Assembly (NCBI GenBank): GCA_041648575.1
Contig: JBAZOT010000006.1
Location: forward strand, 11,893 to 75,892
Direction: 5' to 3'
Source of the DNA: Patescibacteria group bacterium
GTDB lineage: Bacteria > Patescibacteriota > Patescibacteriia > Veblenbacterales > UBA10138
Length of the DNA: 64,000 nt
Below are positions 4,852 through 54,249 of the stretch, piece after piece. Position numbers and translations under genes: made by a program. The notes under the pieces are model-generated. The model had not been told where the DNA came from, searched no databases, and saw nothing but the letters and a program-made list of their open reading frames with translations. Position 1 is the stretch's first letter. Each line of letters begins with the position of its first letter.

Positions 4852-6780
4852 TTAATCATTAATTAAATTTAAATTTATCAATAACTCCTTTATTTCATCT
4901 GAATACTTTCCATTATTTAAATTTAGATATTTTGTAAATTTATCTTTGGCTCCTGGCAGGTCGCCTATACTGTACATCACTTTACCCCATGCTAAATAAA
5001 ATTCTGGTTTATTAGCTAACGACCTCTCCCCTTTGGCAAATAAATTTAGCAAAACTGGTAGTTGGGCATTATCAACACTAGACCAAATACTAAGCAAAGT
5101 TATCATTTCCTGATAATAAACAGGGTCAGCTAATCCTTGAGTACGACTTTTGTTATACCATTGAGCACTAGCCCATAATCCATTAACATCCTGCGTGCTC
5201 ATGGCCTTTATTAGTTTAGTTTTCCCAACAGCCGCTGAATAGTTGGGTTCATTACCATTTAAATTTGTTACTTTTATAAAATAACTTTCAGCTTGATCAA
5301 TTTTATTTGATAATAAACTAACTTCTCCTTTTTTTTCAGAAATATCTGCACGCCAAATATTAATATTATGAATCACTGGCCATAAAAAAATTATTAATAT
5401 AATAATCATAGCCCATATTTTTTTTAAATAATTATATGAATAATTATTATTAGTATCAATTTCAAATCTAAAAAATATGGCGATTAATAAGAATAAAAAT
5501 ACTAAACTAACTATATTATCAAAATTAAAAAACCCCATTAATAAATAACTAATCAGACTGGCAATTATACTCAAATAAAAAAAGAATTGATTGCCTGTTG
5601 AAGTTTTTAATTTTTGATATAATTGCTTAATAAATAAAATAATAATTAGTAAAAAGCCTAGTAGCAATAAACTGCCGCCAGTGACCATAAAATCAAGATA
5701 AATGTTGTGGGATCGGTCAAAAAGATTGGGTTCAATTACAAAAGGCGAAGGGTGATTTTGCGATAAAATATAAAATGTTTCCGGACCAAACCCCAACACT
5801 GGCCTTTGCTGCCAGGCATCAATAGCTATTTGCCACACCCACAATCTTACCCCCAAGCTATTGTTTTGTAAGTCTAGAGAATTATTTAAACGACTGCTAA
5901 CCCCTACCCAGTTCACGCTAAAAAATATCATGATTACCAACAATAATATTAGTAATAATTTTTTTATTGACAATTTATTAAATATAAATTTGTAACCATG
6001 CTTTATTGCTATTACCACTACTGTAAATACCACGACCGCTATTAGTGCTAACCACGCACTACGCGCTAAAGTAAAAACAATTGCTATAACTGAAACCATA
6101 CTACCAACTACCACCAACGATTTACTCCACAGGGATTTATAATTAGTAAAAGAATAAACAATCAATGGCAATACCATGACTAAATACATTCCTAAAAAAT
6201 TAGGATGGCCTAAAGTTGAAAACGACCGAATGGAGAAATCGCTAGTGGCTACCCGATAACCACGCTCAAAACCAGGCAAATCAACGCCCCAATGCTGTAA
6301 CATAGCATAACCGGCAACTATGGTTGTAACTATGGTTAAACCTAATAATAATTTACGAATTATGTTTCTATCAAATAAAATAAAACATAAATAATAAAAA
6401 ATATAAATATGCAGCCAAGTAAATAAGCCCTGCCATCTTTCATATAATCCCCAAATACTAACCGGCCTAAAAATTGAAAAATAAGTAGCTAATATTTGAA
6501 CAACCATCATAAAAGTAACAGCTAAATTTATCGGCTGTTTAAAAAAAGCTGTTAAATCTCGCTGACATAATTTTATGGTATTGTTTTGAAATAGCTTATA
6601 CAGTAAATATAAAATTAATGCCAGTTCCACACCCAAATTAAGGCAAGACACTTTAACAACTTCAAAAACATTATAAGTCCTAATATCAAATATTAACGGC
6701 AACAATAAAACAGTTGCCAATAAGCACCAAATTGACAATTTCTCAAAATTCAATCTGATTTTTTTAAAATAATTTACCAT
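4852..6780 (-). CDS. O-antigen ligase (Wzy_C)-like polytopic membrane protein with C-terminal TPR-like soluble domain
   Basis: 642 aa with >10 TM helices and a long loop typical of WaaL/O-antigen polymerase-like proteins. C-terminal ~170 aa hydrophilic TPR-like. Family assignment from architecture only. Confidence 0.5.
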   Translation of the reverse strand: MVNYFKKIRLNFEKLSIWCLLATVLLLPLIFDIRTYNVFEVVKVSCLNLGVELALILYLLYKLFQNNTIKLCQRDLTAFFKQPINLAVTFMMVVQILATYFSIFRPVSIWGLYERWQGLFTWLHIYIFYYLCFILFDRNIIRKLLLGLTIVTTIVAGYAMLQHWGVDLPGFERGYRVATSDFSIRSFSTLGHPNFLGMYLVMVLPLIVYSFTNYKSLWSKSLVVVGSMVSVIAIVFTLARSAWLALIAVVVFTVVVIAIKHGYKFIFNKLSIKKLLLILLLVIMIFFSVNWVGVSSRLNNSLDLQNNSLGVRLWVWQIAIDAWQQRPVLGFGPETFYILSQNHPSPFVIEPNLFDRSHNIYLDFMVTGGSLLLLGFLLIIILFIKQLYQKLKTSTGNQFFFYLSIIASLISYLLMGFFNFDNIVSLVFLFLLIAIFFRFEIDTNNNYSYNYLKKIWAMIIILIIFLWPVIHNINIWRADISEKKGEVSLLSNKIDQAESYFIKVTNLNGNEPNYSAAVGKTKLIKAMSTQDVNGLWASAQWYNKSRTQGLADPVYYQEMITLLSIWSSVDNAQLPVLLNLFAKGERSLANKPEFYLAWGKVMYSIGDLPGAKDKFTKYLNLNNGKYSDEIKELLINLNLIND

Positions 6781-21968: not shown

Positions 21969-22102
21969 GTCATTGCGAGCCTGCCTGCCGGTAGGCAGGG
22001 ATTCCCGTCTAACAGGTCGACGAAGCAATCCCGAAGGTTGCAAGCTTAAGCGAAGCAATCTCCAGAGATTGCCACGCTTCACTTCGTTTCGCTCGCAATG
22101 AC
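21969..22102. mobile_element. MITE-like structured element with 12-bp terminal inverted repeats GTCATTGCGAGC/GCTCGCAATGAC
   Basis: 134 bp. Contains the 21-bp CCTGCCTGCCGGTAGGCAGGG hairpin and a perfect GCAATCT-CCAG-AGATTGC hairpin (its partner GAAGCAATC..TTGC is imperfect). Partial copy of the same TIR at about 46990-47005. Confidence 0.5.
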
Positions 22103-29984: not shown

Positions 29985-30158
29985 CAAAAACCACCCTCAT
30001 CCCTCATCGGGTGGTTGAAAGTTGCCTTCAGGGCATCGTAGAGCCTGCCTGCCGGTAGGCAGGGATGTTAGAACTAGGATTAGAGAAGCGGGAGTGGTAT
30101 ATATACCTGACTTAAGGACTTAAAACTTACCCCACCCTGCTACTCACTATTGTTTTGT
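29985..30158 (-). repeat. Cassette-array repeat R3 (carries a 21-bp REP-like hairpin insertion)
   Basis: Modules A (ACCACCCTCATCCCTCATCGGGTGGT), B (TTGCCTTCAGGGCATCGTAGAG[CCTGCCTGCCGGTAGGCAGGG]ATGTTAGAAC), D (ACCTGACTTAAGGAC), E (TACCCCACCCTGCTACTCACTATTGTTTTG). Confidence 0.6.
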
Positions 30159-34479: not shown

Positions 34480-34553
34480 TGGCAGGGGCGGTAGGAATCG
34501 AACCCACGCTAGAGGTTTTGGAGACCCCTGTACTACCATTATACGACGCCCCC
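34480..34553 (-). tRNA. tRNA-Trp (anticodon CCA), CCA encoded
   Basis: Acceptor GGGGGCG/CGCCCCT, anticodon stem GGGGT/ACCTC, loop CTCCAAA, T-arm GTGGG-TTCGATT-CCTAC, 74 nt. Confidence 0.85.
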
Positions 34554-34578
34554 ACAATCCGCCCGGGGCGGATTTAAG

Positions 34579-34734
34579 CTACTTGGTTTCTTTGTGCGGT
34601 GTATGTTTTTTACACCACTTGCAGTGTTTCTTGGTTTCTAATCTAGTCTTTACTTTCTTCTTGTTCCGATAAGTATGATGCGTAATTTGATGACATTCAC
34701 TGCACTCAAGTTTGATTAAGTTATCTTGTGACAT
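34579..34734 (-). CDS. rpmG: 50S ribosomal protein L33
   Basis: MSQDNLIKLECSECHQITHHTYRNKKKVKTRLETKKHCKWCKKHTPHKETK: C4 zinc-ribbon spacing and the HKE.K ending of L33. Start taken at the internal ATG (34734) rather than the ORF-track ATG at 34809. Confidence 0.85.
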   Translation of the reverse strand: MSQDNLIKLECSECHQITHHTYRNKKKVKTRLETKKHCKWCKKHTPHKETK

Positions 34735-34817
34735 ATATTTAGAGTCTAGAATTAAGAATAATGAATTATGAATTTTTTGCTGGCCGGTCACGTAGCGTGG
34801 CGATAGCAAATTTTATG

Positions 34818-34892
34818 TGGAGCCACCTCTCGGATTTGAACCGAGGACCTACAGTTTACAAAACTGTTGCTCTACCACTGAGCTAAGGTGGC
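34818..34892 (-). tRNA. tRNA-Thr (anticodon TGT), CCA encoded
   Basis: Acceptor GCCACCT/AGGTGGC, D GCTC/GAGC, anticodon stem ACAGT/ACTGT, loop TTTGTAA, T-arm CTCGG-TTCAAAT-CCGAG. Confidence 0.85.
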
Positions 34893-34945
34893 GCTGATAA
34901 TTAAAGAGGGTGGCATACCAAAACTGTAGAGAAGCATCTAGTTTA

Positions 34946-35031
34946 TGGTGGGTGGAGTAGGATTCGAACCTACGAAGGCCGGAGCCAGCAGATTTACAGT
35001 CTGCCCCGTTTGACCGCTTCGGTATCCACCC
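34946..35031 (-). tRNA. tRNA-Tyr (anticodon GTA), long variable arm, CCA encoded
   Basis: Acceptor GGGTGGA/TCCACCC, anticodon stem GCAGA/TCTGC, loop CTGTAAA, variable arm TGGCTCCGGCCTTCG, T-arm GTAGG-TTCGAAT-CCTAC. Confidence 0.85.
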
Positions 35032-35045
35032 ATATTTTATAAAAA

Positions 35046-35282
35046 CTATATTAATTTTTTAAATGCCTCGCCTCCTTTATATGATTTGATCTGCAACTCT
35101 CTTTTATAGGCTTCTGATTTTGAATTAAATTTTTCAATGTATATTACTCGCCACGGAATTCCACTTTTAGTCGATCTAACTAATCCTTTATTATGTCTAG
35201 ACAATCTTTGCTCTAAATTTTCTGTATGACCAATATAGTACTTTTGGTTAGTTTGACTCTGCAATATGTAAGTAATATACAT
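35046..35282 (-). CDS. Small stand-alone GIY-YIG nuclease domain protein
   Basis: MYITYILQSQTNQKYYIGHTENLEQRLSRHN...(GIY-YIG ... R ... E core). Start placed at the internal Met because the ORF-track N-terminal extension (to 35348) is translated from a tRNA-derived fragment. Confidence 0.7.
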   Translation of the reverse strand: MYITYILQSQTNQKYYIGHTENLEQRLSRHNKGLVRSTKSGIPWRVIYIEKFNSKSEAYKRELQIKSYKGGEAFKKLI

Positions 35283-35321
35283 AATCCAACTACGGAGATT
35301 TATGCCGCCTCTGGCGGGGTG

Positions 35322-35379
35322 GCAGTCTGCCCCAGCTTGTCCCGCCACCGGCGGGATTTGACCGCTTCGGTATCCACCC
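35322..35379 (-). pseudogene. Duplicated 5' half of tRNA-Tyr (positions about 1-34) with a 24-nt hairpin insertion
   Basis: 35357-35379 is identical to 35009-35031 (tRNA-Tyr 5' 23 nt). CAGTCTGCCCC repeated at 35323-35333 and 34998-35008. The copy diverges exactly at anticodon position 34/35. Confidence 0.5.
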
Positions 35380-35671
35380 GTGAACTAATCACTCGCTTCG
35401 CTCGTTCTAATTCACGGCACGCCTAAACTGCAAGTGAGGCTGCGCCATGTACCCGAACGAAGTGAGTGGTACGTGGAGCTGTTACACGCCTGTCCGCCTT
35501 TAGCGGAGATTTGAACCCTGAACCAGACGTCGCTACACTCCATCGGTACAGGGCGGACCGCGGACCCTTTGCCCAGTACTGTGCTTTGCTCTAGTACTGG
35601 GTACTCCTTACCCCAGAAGCAGTCCGCCTTAGGCGGACGCTACTGGGCAAACATGGAGTTCATCTGCCCGG

Positions 35672-35744
35672 AGCCGTTGCGCGGATTTGAACCGCGGACC
35701 TACTCCTTACCATGGAGTTGCTCTACCAACTGAGCTACAACGGC
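35672..35744 (-). tRNA. tRNA-Thr (anticodon GGT), no encoded CCA
   Basis: Acceptor GCCGTTG/CAACGGC, D GCTC/GAGC, anticodon stem ACTCC/GGAGT, loop ATGGTAA, T-arm CGCGG-TTCAAAT-CCGCG. Confidence 0.85.
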
Positions 35745-36028
35745 TCTAGGCAGACGTATCATCCGAATGCTGGAGTTGCTCCCTGCCCCGTATGTAAATG
35801 AGCAAAGCGAATTCTACTGCGGGGTACCAACTGAGCCCTGCCTACCGGCAGGCAGGTACAACGGCCCAACTACGCTTGGATTTATTCCCAAGCTACGATG
35901 GGCGAGTGTACTTTTATACTATTTTTCTCGCCCTCCATAGCTTGAGTGTAACGAAAGTGGCAGAAGGAGCTACATCTACCATGGACAGACGTATCATCCG
36001 TATACCAGAGTTGCTTCTTTTAAATTAA

Positions 36029-37006
36029 TTATTTGGTAACGGTTCTTTTTTTCTTTACTATCCGAGCTATTGGCTGTCCCATAATTTGCTTTAACGAAGA
36101 ACTAATATGGCGTCTGGGTCGTAACTTTTCTACCAATTCTCTAATATTTTTATCAAATTGTGATATCTTATTATTTTGCGGATTTACTTCCCTTAAGACA
36201 TCCAGAGCGCTTTGGGCGTCTGTTGGACGCTCATTTACTATACTGATTTCAATAAAAAAGTCAAGCATACGAGGATTGGTTGGCTCCAGTACCCGCGCTC
36301 GATTAACCGCTTCCCAAGCTTCATTAATTTGCCCCAAGTCTTTATATAATTGTGCTAAATCAAAATAAACTTGACTAGTCCCAGTAGGCTCTTTTTCCAA
36401 ATAATTCAAATATTCTATCTTGGCTGCTTCCAATTGCCCCTGCCCTAATAAAGCCTGAGCCAAACCAATGTGATATAGTGGTTTAGTTTGGTAATGGCTA
36501 ACCAAGTATGTATAAAGCTCTTGCGCTGATTCGTAATCATTATTAGCTAAATAAAGTTTACCCAGCCCTTCGTAGGCTTTGGTTTCTTTGGGCGACTGTC
36601 GAATAATCTCCAAATATAATCTTTCCGCATCATCAAAATTTTCTTTAGTAAGCGCCTCACTGGCTTGCTGATATAAATCGTCCAGTGGTTTTGAACCTTC
36701 AGTTTTGGAAATTATTTTCTGTTTTACCTCATCTTCTAATTCTTTTACCTTTTGCCCTAGCTGGTGGCTATATTTTTTAAATATTTCCTTCAACGGACTA
36801 ATCGCCGTTTGTAAAATAACCTTGAATCCAGAAAACTTACGAATCAACCGCGCTTCAGTTAAATCGGTCTTGACTTGTTGTTGTTTAATATTTACCAAAC
36901 GCTCGGTATCTATCATTTTTAAAACCGGAAATTTTTTAACAAACATCCAAATAATACCTACCAACGAGATTACAGCAATGATTCCTAATATAACATCAAT
37001 GATCAT
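36029..37006 (-). CDS. Membrane-anchored TPR-repeat protein
   Basis: N-terminal TM (ILGIIAVISLVGIIWMFV), several TPR-like A/Y/L-periodic repeats (AYEGLGKLYLANNDYESAQELY...). Confidence 0.55.
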   Translation of the reverse strand: MIIDVILGIIAVISLVGIIWMFVKKFPVLKMIDTERLVNIKQQQVKTDLTEARLIRKFSGFKVILQTAISPLKEIFKKYSHQLGQKVKELEDEVKQKIISKTEGSKPLDDLYQQASEALTKENFDDAERLYLEIIRQSPKETKAYEGLGKLYLANNDYESAQELYTYLVSHYQTKPLYHIGLAQALLGQGQLEAAKIEYLNYLEKEPTGTSQVYFDLAQLYKDLGQINEAWEAVNRARVLEPTNPRMLDFFIEISIVNERPTDAQSALDVLREVNPQNNKISQFDKNIRELVEKLRPRRHISSSLKQIMGQPIARIVKKKRTVTK

Positions 37007-53984: not shown

Positions 53985-54176
53985 GAGCTCTGGGGGTGGA
54001 CTCGAACCCTGAACCAGATGTCGCTTCGCTCTATCGGTACAGGGCAAAGCCAGCAACATTCCTGCCTATGCCAAGCAGATGTATTAATACCGTACAAATC
54101 CTCTCGGGGGAGGATTCGAACCTCCAACATCCCTGCCTGCGGCAGACAGGTGCATTAACCCATCTACCTCGACAAG
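53985..54176 (-). pseudogene. Two tandem tRNA-Asn 3'-end-like fragments (att-like scars). The middle one has a perfect T-arm and acceptor 3' strand but no matching 5' acceptor strand.
   Basis: Plus-strand CTCTGGGGGTGGACTCGAACCC (53987-) and CTCTCGGGGGAGGATTCGAACCTCC (54091-) versus the tRNA-Asn 3' end CTCTGGGGGCTGGGATCGAACC (54177-). Confidence 0.45.
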
Positions 54177-54249
54177 CTCTGGGGGCTGGGATCGAACCAG
54201 CGACCTCTCCGTTAACAGCGGAGCGTTCTACCAATTGAACTACCCCAGA
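54177..54249 (-). tRNA. tRNA-Asn (anticodon GTT), no encoded CCA
   Basis: Acceptor TCTGGGG/CCCCAGA, D GTTC/GAAC, anticodon stem CTCCG/CGGAG, loop CTGTTAA, T-arm GCTGG-TTCGATC-CCAGC. Confidence 0.8.

Follow-up and report, generated by a model that had tools for sequence, protein, structure and literature searches.

The window analysed here, a 64,000-nucleotide (nt) stretch of contig JBAZOT010000006.1 from a metagenome-assembled genome (MAG) of a Patescibacteria (candidate phyla radiation, CPR) bacterium with 38% GC, carries a small stand-alone GIY-YIG nuclease gene placed between the genes for tRNA-Thr(GGT) and tRNA-Tyr(GTA) and preceded by a second, hairpin-interrupted copy of the 5' part of the same tRNA-Tyr gene. 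On balance, this arrangement is probably a selfish homing-type cassette of class-II tRNA genes, in which partial duplication of the target regenerates a full tRNA. The evidence comprises the anatomy of the unit, its linkage to tRNA-Tyr and tRNA-Ser, the match between each partial copy and its own tRNA, covarying hairpins, purifying selection, a patchy and discordant distribution and tandem arrays. The first, sequence-only reading of this DNA had offered two origins, namely a mobile GIY-YIG element that carried a replacement tRNA-Tyr, or a decayed intron-containing tRNA-Tyr paralog. The former was broadly supported and could be generalised, since the unit recurs at Tyr, Ser and occasionally Thr tRNA genes in dozens of lineages; the latter did not hold.

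Organization of the unit in the window

All parts of the unit lie on the minus strand. It opens with a partial copy of tRNA-Tyr, the first segment of which (GGGTGGATACCGAAGCGGTCAAA, 35357-35379) corresponds to nt 1-23 of the tRNA and is identical at 23/23 positions to 35009-35031 of the intact gene. Repeat comparison places a single GC hairpin of 23 nt in the D-loop (TCCCGCCggtgGCGGGAcaagct, 35334-35356; TCCCGCC-ggtg-GCGGGA-caagct), after which the copy continues with a second segment (GGGGCAGACTG, 35323-35333; nt ~24-34), identical at 11/11 positions to 34997-35007 and ending at G34. The copy had been thought to break off between anticodon positions 34 and 35; what lies there is a second hairpin insertion of 20 nt (CCACCCCGCCagaGGCGGCA, 35303-35322; CCAC-CCCGCC-aga-GGCGG-CA), past which TAAATCT (segment 'B', 35296-35302) resumes nt 35-41 of the tRNA. 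As delimited by sequence reading, a linker of 13 nt (CCGTAGTTGGATT, 35283-35295) joins this resumed tRNA sequence to the ATG of the nuclease open reading frame (ORF; 35046-35282; Pfam PF01541, 68.2 bits, cutoff 22.6), and a spacer of 14 nt (35032-35045) separates its stop codon from nt 1 of the intact tRNA-Tyr(GTA). The latter gene (34946-35031, CCA encoded) was called by ARAGORN and by Rfam (RF00005, 60.5 bits, cutoff 29), and is the working copy, regenerated or retained 3' of the cassette.

The two copies are thus identical at 34/34 positions, and a 23-nt exact repeat inside 350 nt cannot be due to chance. The described architecture of an upstream, hairpin-interrupted copy of nt 1-34 with a GIY-YIG ORF between the two copies was therefore confirmed in its essentials by the exact repeats and the PF01541 match, with some corrections. 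The distance of 290 nt given for the upstream copy is correct as the gap between the copies, but not as their start-to-start distance, which is 348 nt. The ORF encodes 78 rather than 79 amino acids (aa). Its supposed N-terminal extension translated from the tRNA fragment is mechanical only: the 100-aa frame starts at a GTG at 35348 and simply runs through the fragment, whereas the public protein P0001 (100% identity) has 78 aa and close homologues share the start Met of the 78-aa ORF.

Linkage to tRNA genes across the family

When one genome of each species was scanned with an alignment built from 51 homologues, 80 loci were obtained, 79 of which have a full-length match (loci and proteins are designated below by L and P numbers, respectively). 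The hosts belong to many classes of Patescibacteria, to Ignavibacteria/Melioribacter, Bacteroidota, Chlorobiota, Armatimonadota and others, and the family as a whole comprises 822 clusters at 50% identity (E<=1e-10). A tRNA gene on the same strand starts no more than 70 nt past the ORF end in 62 of the 79 loci and ends no more than 70 nt before the ORF start in 11, so that 70/79 ORFs have a tRNA on one side or the other. The adjoining genes encode tRNA-Tyr (25 downstream and 3 upstream), tRNA-Ser (34 and 8, respectively, with all four isoacceptors represented) and tRNA-Thr (3); no tRNA-Leu gene directly abuts an ORF among the 79 loci. tRNA-Tyr and tRNA-Ser are class-II tRNAs, characterized by long variable arms.

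In 53/62 loci, the 350 nt upstream of the ORF repeat stretches of 10 nt or more of the 5' part of the locus's own tRNA without mismatch, and the apparent exceptions to the layout proved to be arrays, mirror forms or contig ends. The own tRNA was the best or tied match to the partial copy in 22 of 26 Tyr loci and in 27 of 34 Ser loci, when compared among 25 and 27 distinct tRNA sequences, respectively. The canonical unit thus consists of a tRNA 5' segment, a GC hairpin module, 6-20 further tRNA bases, the ORF beginning at its ATG, a gap of at most 25 nt, and the complete tRNA. In the 62 loci the distance from the ORF stop to tRNA +1 is mostly 1-25 nt; a few tRNAs lie farther away, or the ORF runs into the tRNA. 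Comparison of 23 Tyr loci showed 96.9% identity (753/777) to the resident tRNA on the left of the module and 54% (97/181) on its right, past the TAAATC, which indicates that the module marks a sharp boundary; TAAAT(C) itself follows the module in 23/23 of these loci. The neighbour-joining tree of the proteins roughly tracks tRNA type and module position, with a few switches.

Some peculiarities of individual loci were also recorded. The ORF has no stop codon before the tRNA and reads into it in L009, L014, L043 and L084, ending in L009 at a TAA formed by the tRNA-Tyr anticodon loop (G-TA-A). A 97-nt 'tRNA-Ser(TGA)' called by ARAGORN in L010 (1752-1848) is in fact a partial copy of tRNA-Tyr in which the hairpin module occupies 34/35. 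The complete tRNA-Tyr genes of L010 (1406-1491) and L020 (1404-1487) have the T-loop GG-TGCAAAT-CC in place of the usual GG-TTCGAAT-CC (G at position 55), and the partial copy in L010 retains the standard T-loop.

The GC hairpin module

In 35 parsed cases the module is composed of two adjacent 7-bp GC hairpins, hairpin A reading CC(A)CCGCC-loop-GGCGGGG with a bulged A and hairpin B reading YSCCGCC-loop-GGCGGSR. Compensatory changes were found in both stems, with CG in 27 and TA in 6 cases at one pair of hairpin A, and GC in 11, TA in 9 and CG in 11 cases at one pair of hairpin B. The stems were parsed with a split-and-fold script, given that RNAalifold on the MAFFT alignment was misregistered, all four strands being CCGCC/GGCGG-like. 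In the loci read by eye, the module occupies the D-loop, where it follows nt 14 or 21, the anticodon loop, where it follows nt 34-36, or, in mirror forms, the T-loop, and its distance to the ATG is roughly 10-25 nt whichever loop is used. With this distance roughly constant, a shift of the module shifts the end of the partial copy as well. A single-hairpin variant, CCCGCC-N4-GGCGGG followed by YAAR, is often additionally present in the D-loop, as it is in the window, and insertions of one hairpin within another were seen in L009, L036 and L051.

The 34/35 insert of the window is a reduced module that has lost hairpin A: it measures 20 nt, compared with 35-45 nt in relatives, and L001, L003 and L004 keep both CCACCGCC..GGCGGGG and TGCCGCC..GGCGGCA. 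L003 has the D-loop hairpin of the window unchanged (23/23), and L001 and L004 have it in nearly identical form. The module agrees with the pattern of a GC-rich element of two stem-loops, with nested copies, in an AT-rich genome, the region of tRNA fragments in the window (35290-36028, non-coding) having 55-63% GC against 38% for the genome. Seven CCGCC..GGCGG hairpins occur in the 64-kb window, four of them in this region and one next to tRNA-Trp.

Single-sequence folds of the leader were not significantly more stable than those of shuffled sequences (z -0.65 to -2.05) and give no support for a special global RNA fold. Apart from tRNAs and noise, Rfam returned nothing, and thus no intron, ribozyme or known leader, either at E<=10 on both strands of 34900-36050 or at the gathering threshold over the whole window. 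Two further candidates were rejected. A hammerhead or other small ribozyme, judged by eye, does not fit the junction, which reads CUG / U(G) / (CA)UAAA and not CUGANGA / GAAA, and has no Rfam match. An origin as P-nucleotide-like palindromes from hairpin-capped breaks was discarded because the module keeps its sequence from locus to locus and bears no relation to the tRNA bases beside it. The hairpins could protect the junction, block recombination between the repeats, serve as substrate of the nuclease or act as an RNA element.

The encoded protein is a bare GIY-YIG core

Residues Y5, Y16, G18, R26, H30, N31 and E62 are invariant among the 51 homologues. The AlphaFold2 model of the 78-aa protein (predicted local distance difference test, pLDDT, 96.2) shows a bare GIY-YIG core which takes up all 78 residues, and no additional DNA-binding domain was found with Pfam, in the model or with Foldseek. 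The nearest structures are the UPF0213 protein BH0048 and the nuclease domain of SLX1. By sequence, the closest were the UPF0213 structures 1ywl (E=1.1e-4) and 1zg2 (E=1.5e-4), the latter also being the top Foldseek match, while SLX1 chains gave template modelling (TM) scores of 0.70-0.74 with 30-33% identity and the catalytic domain of I-TevI was farther away. The protein therefore agrees with UPF0213 / YhbQ-like proteins, which consist of a single GIY-YIG domain of ~80-100 aa; of the marks of Seg-type enzymes it has the GIY-YIG domain with conserved catalytic residues, but not the extra DNA-binding domain for site specificity. SLX1 is a structure-specific endonuclease. Since the 78-aa protein has no DNA-binding domain, it is a reasonable guess that it may recognise DNA structure, such as hairpins, cruciforms or cloverleaf-like folds, which agrees with the position of every insertion read in a loop.

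Comparison of the window ORF with those of L003 and L004 gave ratios of nonsynonymous to synonymous divergence (dN/dS) of 0.04-0.11 at a dS of 1.4-2.4, from which the gene is judged to be under strong purifying selection. Many family members are listed in databases as proteins of 100-130 aa in which the GIY-YIG match begins at residue 20-50; these entries are probably start-codon miscalls through the GC-rich leader of partial tRNA and hairpins, like the 100-aa ORF of the window.

Syntenic relatives and patchy distribution

The closest homologues, P0002, P0003 and P0004 (88, 81 and 78% identity, respectively), are encoded at the same syntenic position, in the shared order ScpB-TIM-TPR, tRNA-Thr, GIY-YIG, tRNA-Tyr, tRNA-Thr, L33. 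Their leaders have the same composition, with tRNA-Tyr nt 1-23, a D-loop hairpin, nt 24-34, a two-hairpin insert, TAAATCTCC and the ATG. The tRNA-Tyr genes of these relatives differ from that of the window at ~8 positions in the 5' half, and each partial copy matches its own tRNA. The identities of 34/34 for the copy and 23/23 for the D-loop hairpin, despite saturated dS, imply upkeep of the leader by selection, gene conversion or both, and on these comparisons the leader is best regarded as a maintained sequence, not a decaying pseudogene.

The syntenic locus was also sampled independently of the nuclease, through homologues of the neighbouring TPR protein found by protein search and contig look-ups; a metagenome scan with the same protein for syntenic loci gave one unrelated match. 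An uninterrupted site in relatives, which the sequence-only reading had proposed to look for, is present in the nearest syntenic relatives: L087, L088 and L089 (53-59% TIM and 52-61% TPR identity to the window) have an uninterrupted succession of tRNA-Thr, spacer and tRNA-Tyr, and the tRNA-Tyr of L088 is nearly the same as that of the window. The closest relative of all, L086 (75% TIM and 73% TPR identity), has at this place a different ORF of 204 aa that ends 3 nt before a very different tRNA-Tyr. The cassette is present, with a protein 78-88% identical to that of the window, in L001, L003 and L004, whose flanking proteins are less similar (51-55% TIM and 38-41% TPR identity). A conserved locus is thus polymorphic for presence and absence of the cassette, a trait shared with free-standing homing endonuclease genes of the Seg type, and occupancy is discordant with flank similarity.

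Other loci likewise point to mobility. The acceptor and T-arm parts of the partial copy in L010 are unlike the resident tRNA-Tyr; the partial copy of L043 matches the tRNA of a sister element in L024 and not the resident one; and a single MAG has copies at both tRNA-Tyr and tRNA-Ser (L026 and L032). A scan of viral contigs gave one weak match with 43% identity, which indicates that this is not a phage family.

With regard to the slot occupied in L086 (region 4866-5675), a badly decayed remnant of a window-type tRNA-Tyr was noticed upstream of the 204-aa ORF. The product of this ORF has an N-terminal helix-turn-helix, the motif 'YWAEGSK...VDFANSDP' and a weak PHROG match to HNH endonucleases; nuclease genes of more than one kind thus seem to be drawn to the slot 5' of tRNA-Tyr.

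Mirror forms, arrays and ORF-less remnants

Ten loci have the reverse layout, with a full tRNA followed by the ORF and then by a hairpin-bearing copy of the 3' part. Arrays of [partial copy plus module]-ORF units lie 5' of the full tRNA in L008, L029, L045, L046, L061 and L082, and an array is also present in the mirror-form locus L020. The clearest case is L017 of Melioribacter sp. OK-6-Me (1384-2143), where a 360-nt unit is repeated in tandem without a single difference and the array ends in a complete tRNA-Ser. Each unit consists of a 41-nt leader, nt 1-21 of tRNA-Ser(GCT), a double-hairpin module, nt 22-40 and the GIY-YIG ORF. This array looks recently amplified; a decayed third ORF was noticed upstream of it. 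The record carries an NZ_ prefix and no MAG label, and the genome appears to come from a presumably cultured organism, so that, with a perfect array at hand, experiments may be feasible.

Hairpin-bearing tRNA fragments without an ORF accompany the neighbouring tRNA-Thr(GGT) gene in the window, all on the minus strand and, for the first two, identified by repeats and sequence reading. The intact gene (35670-35744; ARAGORN, and Rfam with 70.5 bits) is the first of its tRNA cluster. Just downstream of it lies a copy of nt ~27-76 (35473-35660) with three or four hairpin inserts, one of them at 34/35; L003 and L087 have tandem repeats of homologous arrangements. A copy of nt 1-31 (35772-35865), 27 nt upstream of the intact gene, is interrupted by the 20-nt hairpin CCTGCCTGCCGGTAGGCAGG after nt 9 and by a 43-nt insert after nt 21, the latter conserved in L003 and L004. 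Farther upstream, an older copy (35967-36015) retains the leader and first 13 nt of tRNA-Thr(GGT).

The palindrome CCTGCCTGCCGGTAGGCAGG occurs three times in the window (~21980-22000, 30045-30065 and 35837-35856, the last inside the tRNA-Thr 5' fragment) and also in L087, where its place in tRNA-Thr is the same; it has the look of a small repeat dispersed in the genome of the window. The leader and trailer of tRNA-Thr(GGT) are complementary over 17 nt (35663-35679 against 35738-35754, 88%), extending the acceptor stem, and the corresponding flanking stem in L088 is even longer; this stem may serve in precursor processing.

Neighbouring genes and other features of the window

The cluster that harbours the cassette has a conserved bacterial gene order, reading on the minus strand tRNA-Thr(GGT), tRNA-Tyr(GTA), tRNA-Thr(TGT) (34818-34892), rpmG (34579-34809) and tRNA-Trp (34480-34553). 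In relatives, small ORFs of PF05635 ('23S rRNA intervening sequence protein') lie ~30-115 nt upstream of tRNA-Trp (L003 5106-5474, L089 5183-5461 and L002 879-1265), a second small ORF family using tRNA-flanking slots; the corresponding gap in the window (34554-34578) has 25 nt and contains a GC hairpin only. Elsewhere, just 3' of tRNA-Asn (54176-54249), a stretch at ~54090-54175 on the minus strand contains a tRNA-like 3' part, GGAGGTTCGAATCCTCC, with an acceptor-like tail, and the GC hairpin CTGTCTGCCGCAGGCAGG before it. ARAGORN did not call it, and it may be a hairpin-bearing partial tRNA without a nuclease gene.

Proposed origin of the cassette

If the unit is a homing cassette, as we consider probable on balance, the nuclease would cut an unoccupied cognate tRNA gene in a loop, and the break would be repaired from an occupied allele, with the left end pairing with the partial copy and the right end with the complete tRNA. 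Repair synthesis would copy the module, the ORF and the replacement 5' part, giving the observed layout with an intact tRNA. The tRNA portions flanking the cassette would act as portable homology arms; as both arms lie inside the tRNA, the cassette would be independent of species-specific flanks, and as it brings the displaced 5' part with it (the 3' part in mirror forms), the full tRNA would be regenerated and the host would lose nothing. The hairpin module would mark the junction and interrupt the partial copy. Tandem arrays would arise by renewed cutting of the regenerated tRNA or by unequal recombination between the repeats, and deletion would leave tRNA fragments with hairpins but without an ORF. 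The tRNA operon probably provides the transcript of the ORF, from which RNase P would free the tRNA just past the stop codon; it is the tight spacing of ORF and tRNA that suggests co-transcription and release of this kind. Similarity between tRNA sequences would set the limit to its spread; this could account for the use of Tyr and Ser genes with occasional switches. The site and specificity of cleavage, homing itself, the role of the hairpins and co-transcription are inferred.

Several points weigh against this explanation. The 78-aa protein has no DNA-binding domain that would account for sequence-specific recognition of a tRNA gene, and the regenerated full tRNA retains the presumed target, which leaves self-cleavage unexplained. 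The position of the D-loop hairpin in the window group, within the arm that agrees with the resident tRNA, is not what homing in a single simple step would predict, and it calls for subsequent gene conversion or selection. Within this group, only two tRNA states underlie the co-variation between the partial copy and its resident tRNA, and the dS to the closest homologues is saturated, so that a recent transfer of the window copy is not demonstrable. The only account given for the use of Tyr and Ser genes, seldom Thr and never Leu, is that their D-arms are similar in sequence. Finally, although the window has a -35/-10-like site in the 3' end of the ORF, a promoter there was considered and dropped, TAnnnT being present at -8 to -16 of the AT-rich spacer in only 22/62 loci.

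Alternative explanations

One alternative, which we regard as unlikely, is a set of unrelated coincidences, in which a tRNA was duplicated in tandem, a nuclease gene came to lie in the spacer by chance and GC palindromes resembling miniature inverted-repeat transposable elements (MITEs) settled independently in any dispensable DNA, dead tRNA copies among it, much as GC clusters and double-hairpin elements do in mitochondria. GC palindromes do occur away from tRNAs in the window (20745, 21985, 30049 and 46982), tRNA-Thr fragments bear hairpins without any ORF, and the nested insertions of L009, L036 and L051 resemble those reported for the double-hairpin elements of Allomyces (cited in PMC2800124). 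Chance would not, however, bring the two-hairpin module with its bulged A beside the same ORF family across phyla, hold its distance to the ATG roughly constant while the end of the partial copy shifts with it, keep the partial copies identical to their tRNA without decay, or place 70/79 ORFs against a Tyr, Ser or Thr tRNA.

It is also rather improbable that the leader, i.e., the tRNA 5' half with the two-hairpin module, is a stable RNA which binds the GIY-YIG protein and provides target specificity or regulation. The succession of a target-identical segment, conserved covarying hairpins and an ORF recalls omega-RNAs and bridge RNAs; the leader is conserved despite saturated synonymous divergence, its segment left of the module tracks the resident tRNA (96.9%), and such an RNA would suit a protein without any DNA-binding domain. 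Nevertheless, in mirror-image loci the module and partial tRNA stand 3' of the ORF, so that the module goes together with the partial tRNA copy rather than with a 5' leader. tRNA sequence flanks the module left and right, which is what an insertion into one continuous tRNA would give, and not a guide joined to a scaffold; the supposed guide would match the cell's own essential tRNA gene; and the leader folds are, as stated above, not unusually stable and have no Rfam match. Moreover, we know of no RNA-guided GIY-YIG enzyme. In a more specific form, to which we assign a low probability, the tRNA half, the module and the 78-aa protein would together make up a minimal nucleic-acid-programmed nuclease, in which the module, as RNA or extruded DNA, would recruit the core and the tRNA-identical segment would direct it to the cognate gene. 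If true, this would be the smallest programmable homing system known and the first for the GIY-YIG fold.

Just as doubtful is a domesticated unit of benefit to the host, which would amplify or repair tRNA-Tyr and tRNA-Ser genes under attack by tRNA-cleaving toxins or defence systems, or use the partial tRNA as decoy or regulator. Strong purifying selection on ORF and leader and the tRNA part inside the tandem arrays are compatible with it, and SegB-driven amplification of tRNA-Tyr counters the Septu defence (PMC13096335). Purifying selection is, however, equally expected for an active selfish nuclease, the L017 array multiplies a hairpin-broken partial copy with the ORF and not a complete tRNA, and the closest relatives do without the element at an otherwise identical locus.

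The remaining possibility, a decayed group I intron or intron-containing tRNA-Tyr paralog with the fragment as exon 1 and the ORF as remnant of an intron endonuclease, is extremely improbable. In its favour, the interruption of the copy falls in the anticodon loop, the site of group I introns in bacterial tRNAs, and the protein matches TIGR01453 ('group I intron endonuclease') below threshold (21.6 bits, cutoff 56; E=1.8e-4), but this match reflects only the shared GIY-YIG motif. No group I or II intron was matched in 34900-36050 at E<=10, the 34/35 insert is just a short hairpin, and at other loci the module sits in the D-loop or T-loop. No separate 3' exon exists for the upstream fragment, the ORF being followed by a complete tRNA-Tyr, so the group I intron reading was rejected for lack of both an Rfam core and two joinable exon halves; the copy, identical at all 34 positions, is conserved rather than decayed. 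The sequence-only reading had itself named two findings that would speak against it, of which the missing intron core was borne out. The other, the same gene in relatives at unrelated places lacking tRNA fragments, was not: where relatives have the gene, it lies at tRNA loci and fragments accompany it.

Significance of the homing explanation

If the homing explanation is true, the cassette represents a third way for a homing nuclease gene to occupy an essential gene harmlessly: introns make good the damage in the RNA and inteins in the protein, whereas the cassette would do so at the DNA level by partial duplication of its target. Homology arms internal to the tRNA would allow moves between distant genomes and so explain the spread over Patescibacteria, Ignavibacteria, Bacteroidota and others. 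It would likewise account for puzzling tRNA fragments, tracts of GC hairpins and over-long GIY-YIG calls in metagenome-assembled genomes. How a 78-aa core finds its site is a concrete biochemical question, to which structure-specific recognition of hairpin or cloverleaf DNA is a testable answer.

Comparison with known systems

No description of the association seen here between tRNA genes and the GIY-YIG cassette was found in the searched literature, outside of which most subscription-journal papers lie, and no report there ties UPF0213 or SLX1 to tRNA genes or hairpin modules. Proteins of UPF0213 resemble the cassette protein in being single-domain and ~80-100 aa long, and we know of no function for them. 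SLX1 requires SLX4 and carries a RING/PHD domain.

Integrase islands and prophages also insert into tRNA genes, bring a replacement for the displaced part and leave a partial tRNA as direct repeat. They duplicate the 3' end, measure kilobases and encode a tyrosine or serine recombinase, whereas the cassette has ~0.35 kb, usually duplicates the 5' part and has hairpin inserts in the loops. The unit of the window does not qualify as an integrase island, since it contains no recombinase gene, the 78-aa nuclease being its sole ORF, and its repeat is of the 5' part.

Mitochondrial genomes provide parallels for single aspects. In Allomyces, the atp6 gene is a known gene hybrid with a leftover duplicate fragment, and some of the double-hairpin elements studied by Paquin, Laforest and Lang are reportedly nested in one another. 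As summarised in PMC3787672, citing Beaudet 2013, mobile endonuclease ORFs in fungal mitochondria enter the end of a host gene with a replacement piece and so create gene hybrids. According to the account in PMC2800124, GC-rich elements of two stem-loops occur in AT-rich genomes (Paquin, Laforest and Lang 2000) and GC palindromes flank Neurospora mitochondrial tRNA genes (Yin et al. 1981). These systems are organellar, the hybrids concern protein-coding genes, and the hairpins are dispersed genome-wide and unrelated in sequence to those of the cassette, whose host genes are bacterial tRNA genes and whose module is tied to the nuclease.

The closest known case is SegB of T-even phages, a free-standing GIY-YIG homing endonuclease of the T4/T6 tRNA cluster whose target lies within tRNA genes, where it recognises a T-psi-C motif (PMC2330249). 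SegB drives recombination-dependent amplification of a 718-bp unit of tRNA-Tyr and segB, genes homologous to segB are enriched near tRNAs, overexpressed SegB is no longer toxic once truncated at the C-terminus, and the Septu defence cuts tRNA-Tyr in its variable loop (PMC13096335). Like the cassette, segB is a GIY-YIG gene among tRNA genes that can adjoin tRNA-Tyr, and tandem arrays and a patchy distribution are found here too. SegB is larger, whereas the 78-aa protein is a bare core of the UPF0213/SLX1 branch rather than of the I-TevI type. SegB is also a phage gene without preference for a tRNA isotype, while members of the cassette family are chromosomal and keep almost entirely to tRNA-Tyr and tRNA-Ser, and a stable partial tRNA copy with a double-hairpin module, typical of the cassette, is not described for SegB in PMC2330249 or PMC13096335. 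The cassette may thus be viewed as a tRNA-associated, free-standing GIY-YIG homing gene with an unexplained, conserved hairpin module.

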